A stretch of 64,000 nucleotides of DNA from Myxococcota bacterium (GCA_039028615.1 JBCCHT010000041.1:1-64000); one strand, 5' to 3'. Counted from the first letter of the stretch, positions 32,561-41,305 are shown. Program-made: numbers and translations. Notes: generated by a model not told the origin, from the sequence alone.

Positions 32561-34117
32561 TCACGGATCGGATAGCAACATGTCCACGACGAACATGTCC
32601 GTCGCTCCCGAGTCGGCGACGAACACATCGTCCACGCCATCGCCATTGACGTCTCGAGCCCAGATGGCGGTGGGAATCGGATCGCTGATGCCGAGGCCAT
32701 CGTAGAGCAGCTCCGTGGGCCCGAACACACCCGCGCCCAGGCCACGTGCCGTGTAGGCGGCGATCGTGGCCCCCGTGGGCAGCGTCCACAGCAGGTCGAG
32801 GATCCCGTCGCCATCCACGTCGCCGAAGCCGGTGCGCTCGGGCAACGTGGCCGGAGAAGTCACCGTGACGGGGGGCTCGAAGGTGGCATCGCCCAGGCCG
32901 AAGTGAAGGTCCAGCACGCCGCCGTCGTTGCAGACGAGGTCGACGACGTCGTCGCCGTCGAGGTCGCGCGCCGACATCTGCCCCGAGCAGTCGGGTGCCG
33001 CGACCTCCACGAACGTCCCCCCGGGTTGCCCGAGCCAGAGGCCCGCGCTGCCCCCCGCTTCGAGCCACAGATCGGTCAGCGCATCGCCATCGAACGCTCG
33101 CGCCAAGACGTCGCTCGGGTCCGAGGGCATCGGCGACGGCAAGGGCATGCCCAGTTGCCCCCCGCCGATGCCCGGCCAGACCTGCATGCCGATCGAGTCG
33201 TACGTGAGCACGTCCGGGAGGCCATCACCCGTGAACTCCCCGGTGACGGCATGCACGTCGGTGAACGGGGTGAACGGATGTGTGAAGGTCTCGTTGAAGT
33301 CGGTGTTCCCCAGGCTGGTCCAGATCTGCAGGTGAGGATGAAAACCGAGGAAGTCGTCGCGCATCTCGATGAACGCCAGATCCGTCCGGCCGTCGCCATC
33401 GAAGTCCTCGCCGTGCATCGAGCCCGGCTGCACCCCACCGCGCGCCCCGGGGGCGAGGATGGGATGCGTTGCGGCGTCGATCAGCCCGACCGTGGCGTCC
33501 CCCGTGTGCACGCCGATGTCCGCGATGATGGAGTTGTTGAACGTGCGGAGTGAGCCCTCGACGTAGTCGCCCACCCCATCGTCGTCGAAGTCGGCGTAGA
33601 CGAGCCCGGCGGGGCGCTGCCCCGGGCCCTCGAACACCATGGGGATCCGGGTAAAGCACAGCCCGGGCGGCTCGACGACCCCGTCGCCGCAGCTGGCGGG
33701 CCCGCCCCCTGTGCCCGTGCTCGAACCGGACGCGATACCTCCGTCGGAGTCCGACGCCCCCTCGTCCGTCCCCGACGACTCGCTCGCCGGACCGGTGCTG
33801 GACGAGCCATCGGTGCTCGAGCCGGAGGTCGTGAATCCGCCCGTCTCCGAGCTCGATGTGCCGCTCGTCGTCGACCCAGTCGTCGCGGGCGCTCCCGTCG
33901 AGGTCGACTCTCCGCTCCCCATCGAGCCCGATTCCGTGCCCTCCGAACCCACTTCCGACACAGTCTCGGCGGAGCCGCTCGTGGCCCCCGCGTCCGTGTC
34001 CTCGTCGTCGTCCGACTCCGGGGTGACGACGACGGTGATGCACCCACCCGCCAGCAACAACGAACCCAGACCCAGCACGCGAGCCACCTCGCGCGGGCCG
34101 GCAACCGCGACCGCCAT
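32561..34117 (-). CDS. FG-GAP/VCBS-repeat lipoprotein
   Basis: Lipobox AGG-C; Ser/Thr/Gly-rich linker; CGDGVVE motif; about seven D[FLV]DGDG..D repeats. Confidence 0.88.
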   Translation of the reverse strand: MAVAVAGPREVARVLGLGSLLLAGGCITVVVTPESDDDEDTDAGATSGSAETVSEVGSEGTESGSMGSGESTSTGAPATTGSTTSGTSSSETGGFTTSGSSTDGSSSTGPASESSGTDEGASDSDGGIASGSSTGTGGGPASCGDGVVEPPGLCFTRIPMVFEGPGQRPAGLVYADFDDDGVGDYVEGSLRTFNNSIIADIGVHTGDATVGLIDAATHPILAPGARGGVQPGSMHGEDFDGDGRTDLAFIEMRDDFLGFHPHLQIWTSLGNTDFNETFTHPFTPFTDVHAVTGEFTGDGLPDVLTYDSIGMQVWPGIGGGQLGMPLPSPMPSDPSDVLARAFDGDALTDLWLEAGGSAGLWLGQPGGTFVEVAAPDCSGQMSARDLDGDDVVDLVCNDGGVLDLHFGLGDATFEPPVTVTSPATLPERTGFGDVDGDGILDLLWTLPTGATIAAYTARGLGAGVFGPTELLYDGLGISDPIPTAIWARDVNGDGVDDVFVADSGATDMFVVDMLLSDP

Positions 34118-34184: not shown

Positions 34185-34664
34185 TCAGGCGGGCGGAGGA
34201 AAGGTCTGGACGGCCGAGACGATCGCCTGGCGGATCGTGGCCGCGTTGGCGTAGTCGGGGCAGTAGCGCAGCGCCGGGTCGCGGGCCGACAACGCCCGGA
34301 AGCGACGCTCCTCGGGGCCGAAGTCGTAGCTGAGGATCACGGGACCGGTGTAGCCCGCCTCCCGAAGGCTCCGCAGCACGAAGAGCCCCTGGTTATCCTG
34401 CTGGAACCGCCGCGCTCGCGCGACGTCGCCGTTGAAGCGGGCCGCGAGCTCCACCAGGTTGCCGAGCAGGGCTTCCTCGGGCGTTCGATCGAAGCGCATG
34501 TCGAGATAGACCAAGTCGGGTCGACGCTCGGCCATCATCTGGCACGCCGCGCCTCCGCTCTGGGCCTGCCGATAGACGAAGCCGTCGGCGACGAAGGTCG
34601 ACAGGTTGGTCAGGTACTCGTTGCCGTCTTCGACGACGAGCACGTCGATGGGGCGCTGGTTCAC
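34185..34664 (-). CDS. Single-domain receiver (REC) protein with ~30-aa insertion
   Basis: VLVVEDG, PDLVYLDMRFD...QGLFVLRSLR...PVILS. The GTG at 34664 overlaps the upstream TGA (GTGA). Confidence 0.85.
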   Translation of the reverse strand: MNQRPIDVLVVEDGNEYLTNLSTFVADGFVYRQAQSGGAACQMMAERRPDLVYLDMRFDRTPEEALLGNLVELAARFNGDVARARRFQQDNQGLFVLRSLREAGYTGPVILSYDFGPEERRFRALSARDPALRYCPDYANAATIRQAIVSAVQTFPPPA

Positions 34665-37600
34665 GCGGCCTCCACGGCGGCACTGATCTCGTCTTCGACG
34701 GTAAAGAAACGCAGCACTACGGCCTTGCTCCACCCCGGGGCGGTCTCCACCGAGATGGCGCCATCATAGCGCGACAACAGGTCGACCGTGATCCCCATAC
34801 CGCGCTCGACATAACGACCACGCAACATCTCGTTGGACAGCTGCTCGGGTGAGCGATCCATCACACGAATGGCCAGCGATGCGAGCCCGGTGATTTCGTC
34901 GAGCTCCAGCTCGAGATCGATGCCGAGGCCGACCGGAGGCGTCGCATACTGCACGCTCGAGCGCAGCGAGTTGCGAATCACGTTAGCCAGAATGTCCTCG
35001 AAATCGGTACGAAAGATGCGGACGAGCCCCCCGTGCCCGGTACGCCGCAGCGGCGCCAGGCTGTGGCCCACGAACTGCTCCTCGCCCGTGACCTGATCGT
35101 AGATCTCTTGGACGAGGTCGTCGTCGATGTTCACCACGCACAGCTCGCGGATCATCCCCGACAGGTGCTCGAAGGCTTGCCGCCCCAGCACGTGCCCACT
35201 GCGACCGAGCACCTTGGCCAGCTCGAGCTTGCGACCCGACCGGAGTCGCTCGGGTCGCCGGAGCTGATCGGCCCGCGCCGCGAGGTCCTCGAACGCCTTG
35301 ATCATCGGGCGGAAGATGGGGTCCTTGCGATAGAGGTTGAGGGTCACCCGGTGTGCACGAGCGACCTGCTCGAGCTCTTCGAGGTAGCCGAGAAAGCGCC
35401 CGTAGATGCCGCCTGCGACGCGTCCACGGCGATCTCGGGTGTCGCGACGGCGGCGATCGTCGATGCCGCTGCCGTCGCCGAACATCCGCTGGGCCAACAC
35501 CGCCGCCCGCTGGTCGGCATCGGGTGCCTCGAACTCGAGGGCCCGCCCCACGTCGGCCAAAAATGCGGTGTTGTGCTTGAGGATCTCGTGGCGAATCAGG
35601 CTGAGGATCCGCGCCACTTCGGGGAAGCTCTTGGGATCGCGCTCGAGCAGCTGGGCGAGCGAGGCCCCTCGGTAGTGCCGATACAGCCGCCACGAGGGCA
35701 CGATGATGATGAGCGCGAGCACCAGGCCCGCCGCGAGGAAGAACTGGGTGAAGCGCTCGTCCATCTCGACCCGCAGCGCCTGGGCTCGATCCCAGTGCAG
35801 GTCGTAGTCCCCCGCTTCGTTGAGGTACAGGTCGAGCTCGCGCGAGGCCTCGATGGGCTGGTTGAGCGCCCACAACAGCTCGGCCAGGGTGAAGCGAGCG
35901 GTCAGGGAGCGCAGCTCGGCTGCACGCGCCAGGTGGGGAATGGCCTCGTCGGGCAGGTCTTCGCGCAGCAACAATCCGAGCCGCTCGTGGACCTCGGCTT
36001 GGTCCTCGCGCTTTTCGAGGCTCTGCTCCCAGTACTGCCGCGCGTCACCGCTGCGCTCCTGGGCGAACACCACCCGTGCCAGCTGGTTGAGCACCTCGGG
36101 CTCGTCGGGAAACTCGTCGCGGGCCCCCAGCAGGATCTTCTCGGCCTCGCCCCAGTCCTGGTGCTCGGTGCCGTGCAGATAGGCCATGTTGATGAGCTTC
36201 TGCAGCTTGGGGTCGAGCATCCGCAGCGAGTTTTCCGGGGGCGGCGGAATGGCGGGCAGCTCGTCGCGCCGGATCGCGCGCTCGAGCTCGGCCAGCGCCT
36301 GCTCGGCTCGCTGGAGATCGGGGTCCTCGGGGTCGGCCAGCTCCTGGAAGCGATCGTAGTGCTCGCGCGCCTTCTCGCGATCGGTGCGGGCGTAGAGCTC
36401 TCCGAGCAGCAAGTGCAGCCGATAGAGGTCGGGGCGCAGCCGCAGCGCGGCCACCAGGTGCTCGATGGCTCGCATGTCCTCGGCCCCCGCGAACTCCTTT
36501 TTGTAGATGAGCCCGAGGGTCATGTGGGCCTGGTAGTTCGAGCGATCCATGCCCACGGAGCGCTTGAGGTCCTCGACCGCGTTGAGCAGCCGACCCGTGC
36601 GCGCCAGCACGACCCCGCGCAGGTGATAGGCCCGCGGAAACCATCGCGAGGCCCCGATGGCGGAATCGAGCTCGGCCTCGGCCCGCTCGAGGTCGCCGGC
36701 TCGCAGCGCCGCCTCGCCCCGCAGATACGCGGCTTCGGCCGCCTCGCTCGGCACGAAACCGGTGGTCTTCTCGAGGTCGCGCAGGCTCAGCTCGAACTCG
36801 AGGTCGGCGATGATCTTGTCGACCCCCTTGGTCTCGGGCGCGGCGGGATGGCGCTCTTGCAGCTCGCGGTAGGCCTCGGCGGCCACGCCGAGGTCATCGA
36901 TCTGGCGCAGCAGGTCGGCGCGCAGGCGAAGCGGGCTCGGCAGCGGCTCTCGGCCCGCCCGTCGCGACTCCTCGCGGTAGCGATCGACCTCGGCCAGCGA
37001 CTCGGCCAGCAACAGCTCGCGCTCGCTGCCCTTGGTCTGCTCGGCGCTCTCGTACAGCAGCTGGGCAACCGTGGCGCGCACGTCATCGGGGCGCCACTGC
37101 GAGCCGGGCTTCTCTGCGGCGAGTTCCTTGGCCAGGGCCAGCCGCTCCTTGGCGTACTTGCGACCGCAAAGGCCCATCCACTCCAGCGCCACCTTGCGCT
37201 GCTCGACCCACAGGACCTTCGGGTCGTAGGTCGAAAGCGCGAGCAAATCCTTGAGGGCCCGCCGCGGGCATCGGCCCTTGGGGCTGCGAGCCTTGCTCGA
37301 CTCCGCTCGCCCCAGCAACGCCTCGGGGTCGCCGGGTTGCAGCTCGAGCGCCGCGGTGTACTCGCGAATGGCCTGCTCGTGTCGGTCCTTGCGAGAGGCG
37401 AGCTGAGCCGCCCGGATGTGCTGATCGAAGTAGCGCTTGCGGGCCTGAAGTTTTTCTTCTTCGGTGGGTTCCGGGTCCTCGCCCGAGCCACCCGCCTCGT
37501 CGGAGTCTTCGCCGTCGTCACCACCGCCCGAGGTGGTGCCGTCGTCGTCCTCGAGCCCGGGCAGCAGCGTACGCGGATCGGGAGCAGCCGAGACCGCGCC

Positions 37601-37699
37601 GACGCGGGTGCCGAGCCACAGCCCGAGACCCAGGCCGCCGAGCACCCGAAGCATCGAGCGCCGCGCCCCGCCGCGCAGCCATGGTCGCCAACCGGTCAT
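34661..37699 (-). CDS. Membrane sensor with large extracytoplasmic TPR region and atypical histidine-kinase-like cytoplasmic module
   Basis: Signal/TM N-terminus, many TPRs (AIREYTAALELQP, AYHLRGVVLAR, AHMTLGLIY), TM (FFLAAGLVLALIIIV). H-box-like IRHEILKH, N-box ILANVIRNSL, IRVMD, G2-like GMGI...YDGAISV. ATGA overlap with the upstream gene. Confidence 0.8.
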   Translation of the reverse strand: MTGWRPWLRGGARRSMLRVLGGLGLGLWLGTRVGAVSAAPDPRTLLPGLEDDDGTTSGGGDDGEDSDEAGGSGEDPEPTEEEKLQARKRYFDQHIRAAQLASRKDRHEQAIREYTAALELQPGDPEALLGRAESSKARSPKGRCPRRALKDLLALSTYDPKVLWVEQRKVALEWMGLCGRKYAKERLALAKELAAEKPGSQWRPDDVRATVAQLLYESAEQTKGSERELLLAESLAEVDRYREESRRAGREPLPSPLRLRADLLRQIDDLGVAAEAYRELQERHPAAPETKGVDKIIADLEFELSLRDLEKTTGFVPSEAAEAAYLRGEAALRAGDLERAEAELDSAIGASRWFPRAYHLRGVVLARTGRLLNAVEDLKRSVGMDRSNYQAHMTLGLIYKKEFAGAEDMRAIEHLVAALRLRPDLYRLHLLLGELYARTDREKAREHYDRFQELADPEDPDLQRAEQALAELERAIRRDELPAIPPPPENSLRMLDPKLQKLINMAYLHGTEHQDWGEAEKILLGARDEFPDEPEVLNQLARVVFAQERSGDARQYWEQSLEKREDQAEVHERLGLLLREDLPDEAIPHLARAAELRSLTARFTLAELLWALNQPIEASRELDLYLNEAGDYDLHWDRAQALRVEMDERFTQFFLAAGLVLALIIIVPSWRLYRHYRGASLAQLLERDPKSFPEVARILSLIRHEILKHNTAFLADVGRALEFEAPDADQRAAVLAQRMFGDGSGIDDRRRRDTRDRRGRVAGGIYGRFLGYLEELEQVARAHRVTLNLYRKDPIFRPMIKAFEDLAARADQLRRPERLRSGRKLELAKVLGRSGHVLGRQAFEHLSGMIRELCVVNIDDDLVQEIYDQVTGEEQFVGHSLAPLRRTGHGGLVRIFRTDFEDILANVIRNSLRSSVQYATPPVGLGIDLELELDEITGLASLAIRVMDRSPEQLSNEMLRGRYVERGMGITVDLLSRYDGAISVETAPGWSKAVVLRFFTVEDEISAAVEAA

Positions 37700-39402
37700 C
37701 GTTTCGTGCGTCGCTTGAGTGTACGCAGCTTGATGCCCAGTTGGTTCATGCGCAGCTGCACCTTGCGCCCCGCGCCTGGATCGTCGAGCAGAGCTTCGGC
37801 CATACGCCCCAGTTCGCCCGAGTATTTCCGATACAGACCTTCGAGGTATTGGCGCTCGACCGCGCAGCTGACCGCGTTGAGCGACTCCCCCGTGGGCAAA
37901 TCGACCATCAAGCGCAGGCTGCCGTCCTCGGCCTCGACCACGCCCTCCAGCGCAGCCGGCGACGCGGTCTGCAGCGGCTGCATGGGTCGCAACAGCTCCC
38001 GCACGGTACGGGGCGGAATGGGGACCACGTCGGGGCGACTGGCCTGGCCCGGATCTTCGGGCTCGACCTGCTCCGCGCGATCGACCAGCTCGACCATGGT
38101 CAGCGCCAGCAGGTTCGAAAGCGTCATCTCGAGCTGACGGAAGTTGCCCGGCCACGGGAACTCGTGCAGCTGCTTGAAGCTACTGGGCTGGAGCAGCAGG
38201 TAGATCCGCCGCGGGTCGACGCGCGCGGGCACCTTGGCGCCGACGGTGATCGGCATGGTGTCGCCCTTGCCCGGCACGCGTAGGCCTCGCTGCTCGGCGT
38301 ACTGCACCAGCAGGTCGCGGTTGTAGGGATCGGCCGCCACGCGGTTGAGGAAGGTCCGCAGCAGCTCCTCGAAGTCGTCCCGACGCTCGCGCAAGCTCGG
38401 CAGGGTCAGCGCGGTCGCGGGGTTGAGCCGCATGTACAGGTCCTCGCGGAACTTGCCGTCGCGGACCATGGTGGGCAGGTCCTCGTTGGTCGCCACCACG
38501 ATCTTGACGTCGACCTGCCGCTCCTCGACCGAGCCCACCGGGTGATAGCGGCTGTCCTGCAGCACGGTGAGCAACGACTTCTGCACGTCGAGGCTCAGGT
38601 TGCCGATCTCGTCGAGGAACAGCGTGCCCTGGTGGGCGCGCGCGAGCACACCGTCGCGAGTCGCGGTGGCCCCCGTATACGCCCCCTTCACCACGCCGAA
38701 CAGGTGCGCGGCCATCAGGTCCCGGGGGATCGTGGACAGGTCCACCGCCACGAAGGGCCCGGTTCGCTGCGACCGTTCGTGGATGAACTCGCGGGCGAGC
38801 AGGGTCTTACCCGTGCCCGTCTCCCCCGCCAGGATGATCGGCAGGCGCCCGCGCGCGAGGATGGAGAGCCGCCGCCGCGTGGCCAGCATCGATGGCGTGG
38901 CGCCCCAGAAAAAGGGCTCGTCGCTAGGCTCCGACGGACGCTGCGTCCGCGCGAGGATGCCCTCGACCTGCAGCTTGAGCGCGCGCGCGTCGAGGTAGTC
39001 GTCGTCGAGCAGGTACGTGTAGTCCTGCGCGTTGAGCCGCTCGGCATCGACCTCGAGCGGCAGGTCGTCGCGCGAGGTCATCACGATGACCGGCAGGTCG
39101 GGGTAGGCCCGGCGCAGGTGATCGAGGATGTGCAGGCCCTGCCCCCGCCGCAGCCGCTCCATCGCCCGCTTGGGGTCGCCCTTGGCCAGCAGCGCGGCCT
39201 TGTCGTAGGGCAGCAGCTCGTCTTCGGGGATGTCGAAGTGGACGTCGAGCAGCACCAGGTCGACGCCGTCGCCGTGGCGCCCGAGCAATCCCACCGCCTC
39301 GCGATAATTGCGAGCGGGCGGCAGGAACACGTGCTCCGACATGAAGCGCTTGCACAGCTCGAGGTACTTGTCCTCGTCGTCGACGATCAGGATCGACGAC
39401 AT
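37696..39402 (-). CDS. Sigma54-dependent transcriptional activator (REC-AAA+-HTH, NtrC family), atypical
   Basis: ILIVDDE, GETGTGKT, LFG..KGAYTGA, LFLDEIG, VVATN, FREDLY.RL, LPSLRER, WPGNFRQL. Confidence 0.93.
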   Translation of the reverse strand: MSSILIVDDEDKYLELCKRFMSEHVFLPPARNYREAVGLLGRHGDGVDLVLLDVHFDIPEDELLPYDKAALLAKGDPKRAMERLRRGQGLHILDHLRRAYPDLPVIVMTSRDDLPLEVDAERLNAQDYTYLLDDDYLDARALKLQVEGILARTQRPSEPSDEPFFWGATPSMLATRRRLSILARGRLPIILAGETGTGKTLLAREFIHERSQRTGPFVAVDLSTIPRDLMAAHLFGVVKGAYTGATATRDGVLARAHQGTLFLDEIGNLSLDVQKSLLTVLQDSRYHPVGSVEERQVDVKIVVATNEDLPTMVRDGKFREDLYMRLNPATALTLPSLRERRDDFEELLRTFLNRVAADPYNRDLLVQYAEQRGLRVPGKGDTMPITVGAKVPARVDPRRIYLLLQPSSFKQLHEFPWPGNFRQLEMTLSNLLALTMVELVDRAEQVEPEDPGQASRPDVVPIPPRTVRELLRPMQPLQTASPAALEGVVEAEDGSLRLMVDLPTGESLNAVSCAVERQYLEGLYRKYSGELGRMAEALLDDPGAGRKVQLRMNQLGIKLRTLKRRTKR

Positions 39403-39408
39403 GGCGGA

Positions 39409-39804
39409 TCAGGCTCCTCGCAGCAAGCGACGGTGAAAGTCTCGGAGGGCGCGGCGAATGTCCTGCTGCGCCTGGCGGATCTCGGAGCGCGCCTCGGCCA
39501 GGCCGGCTCGATCTTCGGCACGCAGAGCGGCTTCATGGGAGCGCAGGACCTGCACCGCGTCTTCCACGACCACGAGCTCGGGCTCGGTCAGCGGCCGCGG
39601 CAACTCCTCGGTATGCGCCGCCCAGACCTCCCACGCGCTCTCGTCCCCCTCGGAGCGCGAGCGCGTGCGCAGGATGTCGGCGCGCAGGGCCTCGACGAAG
39701 GTGTCGTCGAGCGGACCCTCCCAAGCATCGTCCTCGAAGTTCGCCGACTGCCAGGCGACGTACTTGCCGAGGTCGTGCTTGAGGGCGGCCGCTCGCTCCA
39801 GCAT
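39409..39804 (-). CDS. Small helical protein with H-box-like motif (ALKHDLGKY); possible stand-alone DHp/phosphotransfer protein
   Basis: 131 aa, helical composition; 6 bp from the activator and 18 bp from the upstream gene. Confidence 0.7.
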   Translation of the reverse strand: MLERAAALKHDLGKYVAWQSANFEDDAWEGPLDDTFVEALRADILRTRSRSEGDESAWEVWAAHTEELPRPLTEPELVVVEDAVQVLRSHEAALRAEDRAGLAEARSEIRQAQQDIRRALRDFHRRLLRGA

Positions 39805-39822
39805 GCGCTCCAGGGTCCGCGC

Positions 39823-40344
39823 TCAGGCGGACGCGATTTGGTACCGGGTGGCTCGCGCGCGACCGGTCGAGATGACCTTGCCCTCGTTCTTCATCCAGAC
39901 GAGGTAGTCGCGCAGCTCTTTGGTCTCGAGCTCGAGGCGCTTGGCGAGCTGACCGATGGTGAGCGGCTCGTCGGACATCGCATCGAGGATGCGACGATAG
40001 AGCTGAGCCTCGCGGCTCTCTTGACGGATGGGATCGGCGGCCGGAGCCACCACCCGCTTGCGCCCGCCCGCCGCGGCGACCACGGTGGGCGTGCTCGCGC
40101 CATTGCTCGGGGTCGACGCAATGGCGCGCTGCGGCAGCGACAGCGTGCCCCGAGAACGCAGGCCGCCGTCTTGAAGCGCCTGCGCCAGATCCCGCAGGCT
40201 GAGCGCTCGCACGGCATCGCCGGCGTCGCTGCTCAGCAGCTCTCGCAAGGTGGTCTCGGCGGGCATGCGGGCAACCGTGCCCATTGCGGCCTTGGCTTGG
40301 TTCTGTCGGAGGGCCGACTCGAACAGCTGAGCAATCTCGGTCAT
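39823..40344 (-). CDS. Putative DNA-binding protein (N-terminal helical domain, low-complexity linker, C-terminal winged HTH)
   Basis: C-terminus RILDAMSDEPLTIGQLAKRLELETKELRDYLVWMKNEGKVISTGRARATRY fits a wHTH with a basic wing. Confidence 0.8.
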   Translation of the reverse strand: MTEIAQLFESALRQNQAKAAMGTVARMPAETTLRELLSSDAGDAVRALSLRDLAQALQDGGLRSRGTLSLPQRAIASTPSNGASTPTVVAAAGGRKRVVAPAADPIRQESREAQLYRRILDAMSDEPLTIGQLAKRLELETKELRDYLVWMKNEGKVISTGRARATRYQIASA

Positions 40345-40437: not shown

Positions 40438-41166
40438 TCACTCACATGTCAACGCGCCCAGATCGACGGGGTCGTCCCCACAACGGAAACAACAATCCTC
40501 GCACGTACGACTGGCATCGAGGCCAATCCCCCACTCGAGGCCATCGGCAGCCGCGCCGTAGCAGATCCACTCGCGCCCGAGGCACTCGATCTCTTCGTGG
40601 CTGGGCACACCGATCCCGGACGTCACGAATGTTTCATTCGCGCTCGGCCACGCCCAGTCGCGGTCGCGTGAGAACAGCCGCCACTCCATGTCGAAACCGT
40701 CGCGACAGTCGTCGGTGAGCGTCCACTGTTGAACGCGCGGCGGGTTGCAGGTCTGAAGGGACTCGTCCGCGTGGTTGGGGCAATCCGGCACGCCGTCGCA
40801 CAGCTGCCGCAGCGCGAGGCAATCGCCCGTGCCGCACACCGCGATGAAGCCCTGCTCGCATACGCATGCACCCTGCTCACAGTAGGAATTGAGCCCGCAC
40901 GTAGTGGTGCAGCCGCGTCCCGCCTGCGTGGTCTGACACCCATGCAGCGCATAGGGGTTGCCGAAGAACCCGCGCTCGCAGAAGCAGTCACCGTCACGGC
41001 AATAGCCGTCGATCGAGCAGCGCACGTCGGCGCACGCTCCTTCGTCCGCGTCGTCGTCGGGAATCTCGATGACGCAGCCGGAAAGCAGCAGCCCGACGCC
41101 CGACGCCCAGGCCCCGGCCAGTGCTCGGGCCCAGACCGATCTCGTCGCGCGGTGCGGCGTCCTCAT
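40438..41166 (-). CDS. Cys-rich lipoprotein with EGF-like and LDL-receptor class A-like modules
   Basis: Lipobox LSG-C; C..G.C.C..GF.G EGF-like units; CGTGDCLALRQLCDGVPDCPNHADES matches the LDLa consensus. Confidence 0.8.
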   Translation of the reverse strand: MRTPHRATRSVWARALAGAWASGVGLLLSGCVIEIPDDDADEGACADVRCSIDGYCRDGDCFCERGFFGNPYALHGCQTTQAGRGCTTTCGLNSYCEQGACVCEQGFIAVCGTGDCLALRQLCDGVPDCPNHADESLQTCNPPRVQQWTLTDDCRDGFDMEWRLFSRDRDWAWPSANETFVTSGIGVPSHEEIECLGREWICYGAAADGLEWGIGLDASRTCEDCCFRCGDDPVDLGALTCE

Positions 41167-41305
41167 GCTCCGATCGTAGGCCGCCGCGGTCGCTTCGTCA
41201 CGGCGGGAGTCCCCCTGCCCGTGCGCCTCGATCGTGCGGGTTTTCCCCCCATCCTGCGGCAAATCTCCCCCGTCGCCGCCGTGCTCGCGCTAGAACCGAG
41301 CCACC

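Follow-up and report, generated by a model that had tools for sequence, protein, structure and literature searches.

Phosphorelays such as KinA–Spo0F–Spo0B–Spo0A of Bacillus and CckA–ChpT–CtrA/CpdR of Caulobacter are, in the accounts given in PMC3433190 and PMC9981736, assembled from a kinase, an intermediate receiver (REC), a stand-alone kinase-like His phosphotransferase and a terminal transcription factor. Spo0B and ChpT build their four-helix bundle from the two hairpins of a dimer and carry a degenerate alpha/beta domain at the C-terminus, and ChpT, which has class I kinase architecture, keeps a domain resembling the catalytic and ATP-binding (CA) domain (PMC3433190). NmpRSTU of Myxococcus xanthus is likewise a multi-component myxobacterial phosphorelay that ends in an NtrC-like activator; it uses two kinases, one of them a hybrid with HisKA and CA domains, to sense oxygen, and its abstract mentions neither a stand-alone His-bundle protein nor a tetratricopeptide repeat (TPR) sensor (PMC11841059). 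Here we describe a gene cluster at positions 34185–40344 of a 64,000-nucleotide stretch of a Myxococcota genome (GCA_039028615.1 JBCCHT010000041.1:1-64000; hereafter the window) that encodes a comparable set of parts: a small protein with a single conserved His (hereafter the small protein), a sigma54 activator with REC, AAA+ and helix-turn-helix (HTH) domains, a TPR-containing membrane kinase and a single-domain REC, with a winged HTH (wHTH) gene in front (Table 1). Unlike in the Spo0B/ChpT relays, a sigma54 activator provides the output, the conserved Lys is missing from both RECs and all parts are clustered, and the 131-aa small protein is modelled as a complete single-chain bundle without a CA domain. 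No description of this module was found in literature searches, which were mostly abstract-level, without supplements and with few subscription papers.

We found five co-oriented open reading frames (ORFs) exactly as called in a first-pass annotation made from the sequence, with gaps of 18 bp (wHTH/small gene) and 6 bp (small gene/activator) and start/stop overlaps of ATGA at 37699–37696 (activator/kinase) and GTGA at 34664–34661 (kinase/single REC). In the window, Pfam and NCBIfam recognise a sigma54 AAA+ protein with a partial REC, TPRs, a further partial REC and a weak wHTH, and return nothing for the small protein or for the cytoplasmic third of the kinase; in the source annotations the kinases go under ‘tetratricopeptide repeat protein’ and the small proteins under ‘hypothetical’. 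In the source genome (G000; 12.3 Mb, 68% GC, nearest named relatives Nannocystaceae) the wHTH, small protein and kinase are each single-copy by tblastn, and the single REC matches only itself and the activator REC. All genome counts given below refer to related genomes (kin) and are not independent trials. A single-query search found the small protein in 23 of 24 other genomes of the window's family, one match each, and in none of 16 genomes from other families. All 20 family loci examined, of the 23 with a match, run wHTH, small protein, activator, kinase, an arrangement far beyond chance; the single REC comes next in 17, and the remaining three stop at a contig end. The flanks (CstA, GltA, BioA, a Ser/Thr kinase) are shuffled between these loci. 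A genome scan yielded 50 family-level loci, 37 with all five genes and 13 truncated soon past the small gene, and the junctions of the core four genes mostly measure −4 to +20 bp.

Profile searches took the module well beyond the family. With a small-protein cut-off of E ≤ 0.001, they gave 400 representative small-protein clusters and, in an even sample of 351 genomes of the phylum, matches to the small protein in 82 genomes. The kinase profile matched 113 of the 351, 76 of them at E ≤ 3e-15 and the rest at E ≥ 1.6e-7, mostly by the CA domain only. A failure of the homologs to co-occur, which the first-pass annotation had named as evidence against its proposal, was not seen: the small protein is present in 75 of the 76 kinase-positive genomes, spanning 13 families, and its gene lies 1.5–6 kb upstream of the kinase on the same strand in 56 of the 75 genomes that have both. 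Among the other 19, five were inspected (G188, G336, G127, G255, G275) and the genes of the remaining 14 are on different contigs. Even where rearranged, the parts remain neighbours: locus L131 (G275) reads kinase-FIST-X-REC-small-activator, L134 reads small-activator-REC-kinase and L135 has mixed strands. G251 and G217, where the kinase has an N-terminal anchor only and a long C-terminal extension, likewise depart from the usual gene order. Seven genomes gave a small-protein match only: in G341 there is a REC near a contig start, G351 is an assembly of 910 contigs, the matches in G152, G212 and G342 are weak and partial, and G087 and G057 hold weak homologs without the His (L138:6608-7060 (+) and L139:8432-8878 (−)) and no strong kinase or single-REC match. 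All four core genes are found in 18 of 30 distant loci (17 at the script threshold plus L075), with pairwise identities of the core proteins that fall to 11–26%. The identities of the four proteins correlate across loci (r 0.90–0.95); this reflects shared ancestry and was not taken as co-evolution. The module occurs in the cultured strains Nannocystis exedens DSM 71, Plesiocystis pacifica SIR-1, Enhygromyxa salina and Paraliomyxa miuraensis; no Myxococcus or Sorangium is among the 80 of 137 loci listed, and no direct search of these genera was made.

The first-pass annotation had placed the wHTH gene at the head of the operon as a core part, which the comparison does not bear out. It is present in 49 of 50 family loci and in 0 of the 30 distant ones; full matches occur only in the window's family (f1) among the 351 genomes, with weak ones (E ≥ 1.9e-6) at eight unrelated places. 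Even within the family its gap to the small gene varies from 7 to 364 bp, and the two genes are further separated in L004, by ~3.5 kb, and in L043, where a gene on the opposite strand intervenes. What is conserved is therefore a unit of four genes, not five: small His protein, REC-sigma54 activator, TPR-transmembrane kinase and single REC. The wHTH is probably a family-specific neighbour outside the relay. With this correction, the earlier picture of a conserved, self-contained and apparently undescribed module with a TPR ectodomain, one transmembrane helix and a sigma54-type output holds, and the module is a real one, built from at least two families that have no library models; the protein ligand, the branching and the insulation that the first-pass annotation also proposed are conjectural.

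The HDLGKY motif that had been likened to an H-box in the small protein is real and conserved: His10 and Asp11 are each kept in 115 of 117 sequences and Lys14 in 113 (two more have Arg). The AlphaFold2 (AF2) model (pLDDT 97.9) folds one chain into a four-helix bundle, with His10 on the first helix, and shows no CA-like domain; nearly all members of the family are 110–180 aa long, with one conserved His and no further His ligands. Pfam searches with 125 members gave no consistent match, in that among 25 of 40 families listed none was common to more than two members and Hpt, HD and HEPN did not appear. Fold searches returned generic four-helix bundles (best Z 9.1–9.7), with histidine phosphotransfer (HPt) domains among them and tied with unrelated bundles (CheA P1, Z 7.8, rmsd 3.2, 101 aligned; Shewanella HPt, Z 7.3, rmsd 3.0, 93 aligned). 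There was no Foldseek hit at E ≤ 0.001 and no ESM Atlas hit at or above 0.9, and a PDB sequence search with the small-protein profile gave nothing relevant. These fold-search results show neither a new fold nor HPt membership. Like the modelled small protein, monomeric HPt proteins of the CheA P1 and ArcB/YPD1 type have an up-down four-helix bundle with one conserved His, a likeness that by Z is no closer than that to unrelated bundles; in HPt (PF01627) this His lies in the second helix (helix B) within an HxLKG motif, whereas in the small protein it lies in the first helix, within HDLGKY and with a Lys at +4.

A relationship that the first-pass annotation overlooked is the probable paralogy of the small protein to the kinase's own His domain. 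In hhalign comparisons His10 aligned to His704 over 91–95 columns (E 0.001–0.004), with scores of 23.6–27.7 as against maxima of 19.3 and 18.7 for block shuffles (60 and 99 shuffles), 12.8–14.5 for reversed profiles and 19.9 for non-overlapping domains of the same proteins; two TPR windows that included the H-box scored 22 and were excluded as controls. Cross hmmsearch gave best scores of 15.0 and 13.7 bits versus 6.5 and 6.7 for reversed targets, and a kinase His domain (G059, E 9e-4) turned up unprompted in a search with the small-protein profile. The two AF2 models are colinear in their helices, the Lys at His+4 is conserved in both proteins (K14, K708), and divergent members converge on a common H-[DE]-x-x-K-[YH] (HDWIKY in the small protein versus HELIKH or HDIIKH in the kinase). 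Judging by profile alignments and predicted structures, we consider it quite probable that the small protein is a paralog, or free copy, of the kinase's non-HisKA His domain. Complex prediction paired it with the activator REC at a score of 0.53 (best of three controls, 0.00), with at least 72% of contacts agreeing between runs and a partner pLDDT of at least 89; since scores of 0.60 or less include 18 of 157 solved pairs plus both passing mismatches of 215, the prediction lends weak support to an interaction between the two.

The kinase consists of a TPR ectodomain (~80–640), one hydrophobic segment (~650–670) between the TPRs and the cytoplasmic part, a helical His domain of ~165 aa and a GHKL-type CA domain; by inspection, its N-terminus is probably a signal peptide. 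Of 79 distinct kinases, 75 have such a segment ahead of the His domain, and TPRs are found in 19 of 23 distant kinases scanned (35 available). Pfam sees only TPR families in the window kinase. In the AF2 model (pLDDT 89.4) the His domain comprises helices 14–32, 38–47, 53–65, 89–107, 121–133 and 146–179 ahead of a CA domain that superposes on MprB with Z 16.3 (rmsd 2.7, 137 aligned) and, across MprB, CusS, VanS and WalK, with Z 15–16. HATPase_c matches 12 of 51 members, whereas the HisKA-type models (HisKA, HisKA_2, HisKA_3, HWE) match none of the 51 at E ≤ 0.1; a PDB sequence search with the kinase profile gave nothing relevant. His704, Glu/Asp705, Lys708 and Asn906 are invariant in 77 distinct sequences, and Asn910 of the N-box, Asp948 of G1 and Gly967 and Gly969 of G2 are kept in 76; the lid residue Arg962 is kept in 73. 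The first-pass annotation was right that a DxGxG G1 box is absent, yet the G1 Asp is nonetheless among these conserved residues. The kinase thus shares with class I HisKA kinases the GHKL CA fold, an H-box His followed by an acidic residue, the N-box, the G1 Asp and G2, and differs from them in its multi-helix His domain, which replaces a two-helix hairpin, and in the missing G1 glycines and F-box. An active enzyme would be the simpler reading of this pattern. Pyruvate dehydrogenase kinase and BCKDK also combine a helical N-domain with GHKL; Foldseek aligned the kinase model to PDK4 over 355–374 columns (E 2.7e-7 to 8e-7, TM 0.34–0.37, rmsd ~18), but VIA-align matched the CA domain only and no sequence match was found, which makes this a lead only. 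On the features tested, the module falls outside HisKA kinases, HPt and Spo0B/ChpT alike.

Among the candidates considered for the kinase, HisKin-conflict (PF22561) was the top ESM-Atlas feature match (0.94, 198 of 256 features) and went unconfirmed: its HMM matched 0 of 51 kinase members, nothing in G000 and, equally, nothing in control genomes, and the part of PMC7159879 available describes no such system. PADLOC gave generic AAA/REC/HTH matches only. The divergent kinases at L134:8880-11114 (+) and L135:230-2416 (−) have only an anchor at the N-terminus and carry a C-terminal extension of ~400 aa with a second hydrophobic segment and no Pfam match; in these the sensor module appears to have moved behind the kinase. 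The L131 kinase has a short lipoprotein-like N-domain.

By sequence, the activator REC and the single REC are paralogs (142 columns, hhalign probability 99.1, E 1.6e-18). The activator matches Sigma54_activat (E 7e-54) and Response_reg (E 6e-9), the single REC a part of Response_reg (E 2.7e-6). That both RECs share a long insertion and lack the conserved Lys was correctly seen in the first-pass annotation: after beta3, 23–36 and 33–42 residues, respectively, separate the phospho-Asp from QG, a distance of ~6 residues in canonical RECs. The activator REC keeps Asp8 in 110 and Asp9 in 112 of 114 distinct sequences (the rest being gaps), Asp53 in all 114 and Thr/Ser109 in 111, and the single REC keeps Glu12, Asp13, Asp55, Phe58 and Arg60 in 75 of 75 and Ser112 in 64.

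The AAA+ domain of the activator carries the motifs of the NtrC family: Walker A GxTGxGK in 95 of 96 sequences, Walker B DE and the Arg finger R325 in 96 of 96, sensor II R422 in 108 of 109, and a GAFTGA-type loop, G-A/S-Y-T-G-A/S, with Tyr in 93 of 96. Like NtrC-family activators it has the REC-AAA+-HTH layout, acidic pocket and phospho-Asp; unlike them it reads VDLS in place of the switch Asn that NtrC-type AAA+ activators carry, has GAYTGA in the window protein, a lid insertion and a diverged HTH, and lacks the beta5 Lys. HrpS also carries GAYTGA and can interact with sigma54, as reported in PMC3105312. The HTH had been called degenerate. It is diverged, with HTH_8 found in 2 of 44 members (best E 0.016) and no solved HTH found by a PDB sequence search with its profile, but ‘degenerate’ overstates the case, as R551, N553, G556 and R560 are each kept in 90 of 91 sequences. 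Diverged from HTH_8 yet conserved across the phylum, it probably binds DNA itself, and the suggestion that the wHTH stands in for it does not hold, as activators from loci without a wHTH conserve this HTH as well. Sigma54 is available in the host (an RpoN box in G000:C2), and PF04552 was found in 5 of 5 other genomes tested, four of which carry the module. The protein is a genuine sigma54 activator whose REC is atypical. Regions preceding the cluster show no enrichment of a −24/−12 element, the loose pattern occurring in 3 of 56 and 4 of 61 of them, from which we infer that the activator's targets lie elsewhere in the genome; G000 has 18 strict sigma54-like sites, none assignable to this activator.

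Taken together, the observed conservation, linkage, model folds and motifs point, at somewhat better than even odds in our judgement, to a four-protein His-Asp-His-Asp phosphorelay analogous to Spo0F/Spo0B. The periplasmic TPR array would sense an envelope cue, probably a protein or peptide, and the GHKL domain would phosphorylate His704 on the kinase's own helical bundle. The phosphoryl group would then pass to Asp55 of the single REC, on to His10 of the free bundle protein and finally to Asp53 of the activator, which would drive sigma54 promoters at other places in the genome. In its make-up the module resembles a duplicated pair of His bundle and REC, with kinase and single REC as one copy and free bundle and activator REC as the other, and the Lys one helical turn past each His (K708, K14) may replace, in trans, the Lys absent from both receivers. 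In G188 (on one contig) and G336 the small and activator genes are separated from the kinase and REC genes, and these splits fit the cognate pairs of such a chain.

Several observations weigh against this phosphorelay. With the register set by alignment to Spo0F, a Lys in the beta5 region occurs in only 1 of 114 distinct activator RECs and 1 of 75 distinct single RECs; loss of this Lys marks phosphorylation-independent regulators, with WhiI as the example given in PMC4125116, and CheY K109R, as cited second-hand in PMC3203184, is not activated; that this mutant is still phosphorylated counts in favour of the relay. By the precedent of CheY a Lys-less activator REC needs another switch, for which the shared REC insertion, the conserved Arg residues (R57 and R60 of the single REC) and the donors' His+4 Lys would be candidates. 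The kinase lacks the G1 glycines and F-box (Asp948 is followed by R/N-S/A-P) and has a short ATP lid. It also has a second near-invariant His, H709 (76 of 77), so that assignment of the phospho-site to His704 rests on its alignment to His10, and for the paralogy behind that alignment hhalign itself gives a probability of 8–19%. Linkage has exceptions as well: the small gene lies apart in G127 and the kinase in G255, kinase-positive G180 has a REC and gave no small-protein match, the distant loci L079, L091 and L094 are without a kinase within 6.8–8 kb downstream, and L074 has a kinase and no REC.

Much of the evidence would be met equally well by a branched two-component system, in which phosphoryl goes straight from the kinase to the activator, with the single REC serving as a phosphate sink and the small protein as a reverse-transfer drain, a phosphatase or a competitive decoy that mimics the docking surface of the kinase. 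Being paralogs, the two His domains and the two RECs could recognise each other's partners; conservation and co-occurrence suit this scheme just as well, and so does the predicted contact between small protein and activator REC. Against this stand the splits in G188 and G336, which suggest that small protein with activator and kinase with REC are the cognate pairs, and the residue at His+4, which in both His proteins is Lys and not the Thr/Asn of the E/DxxT/N phosphatase motif; we regard the branched system as doubtful, though a serious contender. The first-pass annotation had suspected partial independence of phosphorylation, and the extreme form of this idea is a complex with a pseudokinase or scaffold, in which binding (partner switching) would control the Lys-less RECs. 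The missing beta5 Lys, the absent G1 glycines and the short lid would suit it, as would the precedent of Lys-less WhiI, which acts without phosphorylation. WhiI, however, as described in PMC4125116, is an orphan and, besides the Lys, is missing a residue of the acidic pocket, whereas here the acidic pocket and phospho-Asp are intact, the beta4 Thr/Ser is mostly kept and a kinase is adjacent. The near-invariance of both His, both Asp and the ATP-binding residues of the N-box, G1 Asp and G2, down to identities of 11–26%, speaks against the earlier suspicion and makes such a complex unlikely. Most improbable of all, the small protein would carry no phosphoryl and would instead be under the control of the system, as a HEPN-like bundle or as an enzyme of metal-binding or HD-like type. 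LxHDLGK does resemble the HD-domain motif, and HEPN chains are among the generic bundle matches (Z 7.5–8.2), but the family has only the one conserved His and no H...HD...D ligand set, HD and HEPN are missing from the 25 of 40 Pfam families listed, and the His is in register with the kinase H-box.

Should the phosphorelay exist, it might go further than a variant of known relays. We tentatively suggest, as a possibility that falls well short of even odds, that the kinase represents a new histidine kinase class with its phospho-His on a self-contained four-helix bundle, maybe without DHp dimerisation; that the duplicated free bundle is a phosphotransferase that arose independently of HPt, Spo0B and ChpT; and that the His donors, at His+4, have taken over the active-site Lys that the receivers lost, a chemistry that would be closed to the cell's ordinary two-component systems.

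Table 1. Genes of the cluster and the candidate promoter, in window coordinates
Feature	Position	Strand	Description
wHTH protein	40344-39823	−	173 aa; helical N-domain, variable linker, C-terminal winged HTH
Stand-alone His protein (small protein)	39804-39409	−	131 aa; His10 codon starts at 39777, in H-D-L-G-K-Y
Sigma54 activator (REC-AAA+-HTH)	39402-37696	−	568 aa; D53 codon starts at 39246
TPR membrane histidine kinase	37699-34661	−	1012 aa; H704 codon starts at 35590
Single-domain REC	34664-34185	−	159 aa; D55 codon starts at 34502
Candidate sigma70-type promoter	40418-40390	−	−35 TGGACG, 17-bp spacer, extended −10 TGgCATAGT

Of 56 distinct regions upstream of the wHTH gene in the family, 36 contain the −10 motif of the candidate promoter or a close variant, preceded at 17 bp by TTGNCN/TGGACG-like hexamers; TGnCATAGT has 29 occurrences in the whole genome. 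A strict promoter scanner did not call this site, which reads as a putative sigma70-type promoter. In distant loci the region ahead of the small gene showed no conserved motif. The wHTH protein itself matches HTH_5 (E 1.2e-4) and DprA_WH (E 1.7e-4); its helical N-domain is conserved, its linker variable and its C-terminal motif GRARATRY, an architecture that we take to recall nucleoid-associated proteins. Directly upstream of it, at 40438-41172 (−), lies a gene for a Cys-rich EGF/LDL-receptor-A protein, probably a lipoprotein, which is found in 18 of 20 family loci and was not seen in distant loci; it is possibly a periplasmic partner, in the window's family only. At the other end, a gene for an FG-GAP repeat secreted protein (32561-34117 (−)) starts 67 bp past the REC stop, behind a GC-rich, hairpin-like spacer, and stands beside the module in 0 of 20 family loci.

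Clustering of flanking ORFs from 50 distant loci revealed lineage-level neighbours only and no universal target gene. Downstream of the REC, an aminopeptidase-P-like gene (by inspection) recurs in ~11 distant loci (L073, L078, L082, L085, L087, L096-L100, L140), probably as lineage-level synteny. In L131 the kinase and REC are separated by a FIST-domain gene (L131:9588-10697 (−)) and a large lipoprotein-like gene, and in L148 a PAS-type ORF of ~700 aa (L148:9293-11413 (−), by inspection) intervenes between activator and kinase. A myxobacterial-type module is also carried by several records with Enterobacterales or Klebsiella in their titles (L073, L079-L082, L095); most likely these are mislabelled titles of metagenome-assembled genomes.

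If the proposed relay is true, it adds a type of kinase His domain and a family of phosphotransferases that Pfam and NCBIfam do not see. Its receivers, which keep the Asp and lack a near-universal Lys beside apparently intact His partners, would allow a direct test of the role of that Lys and of relay insulation, and the soluble parts are small enough for reconstitution. Finally, HMM-based censuses of two-component systems would be omitting a single-copy pathway that is present in nearly all genomes of the window's family.

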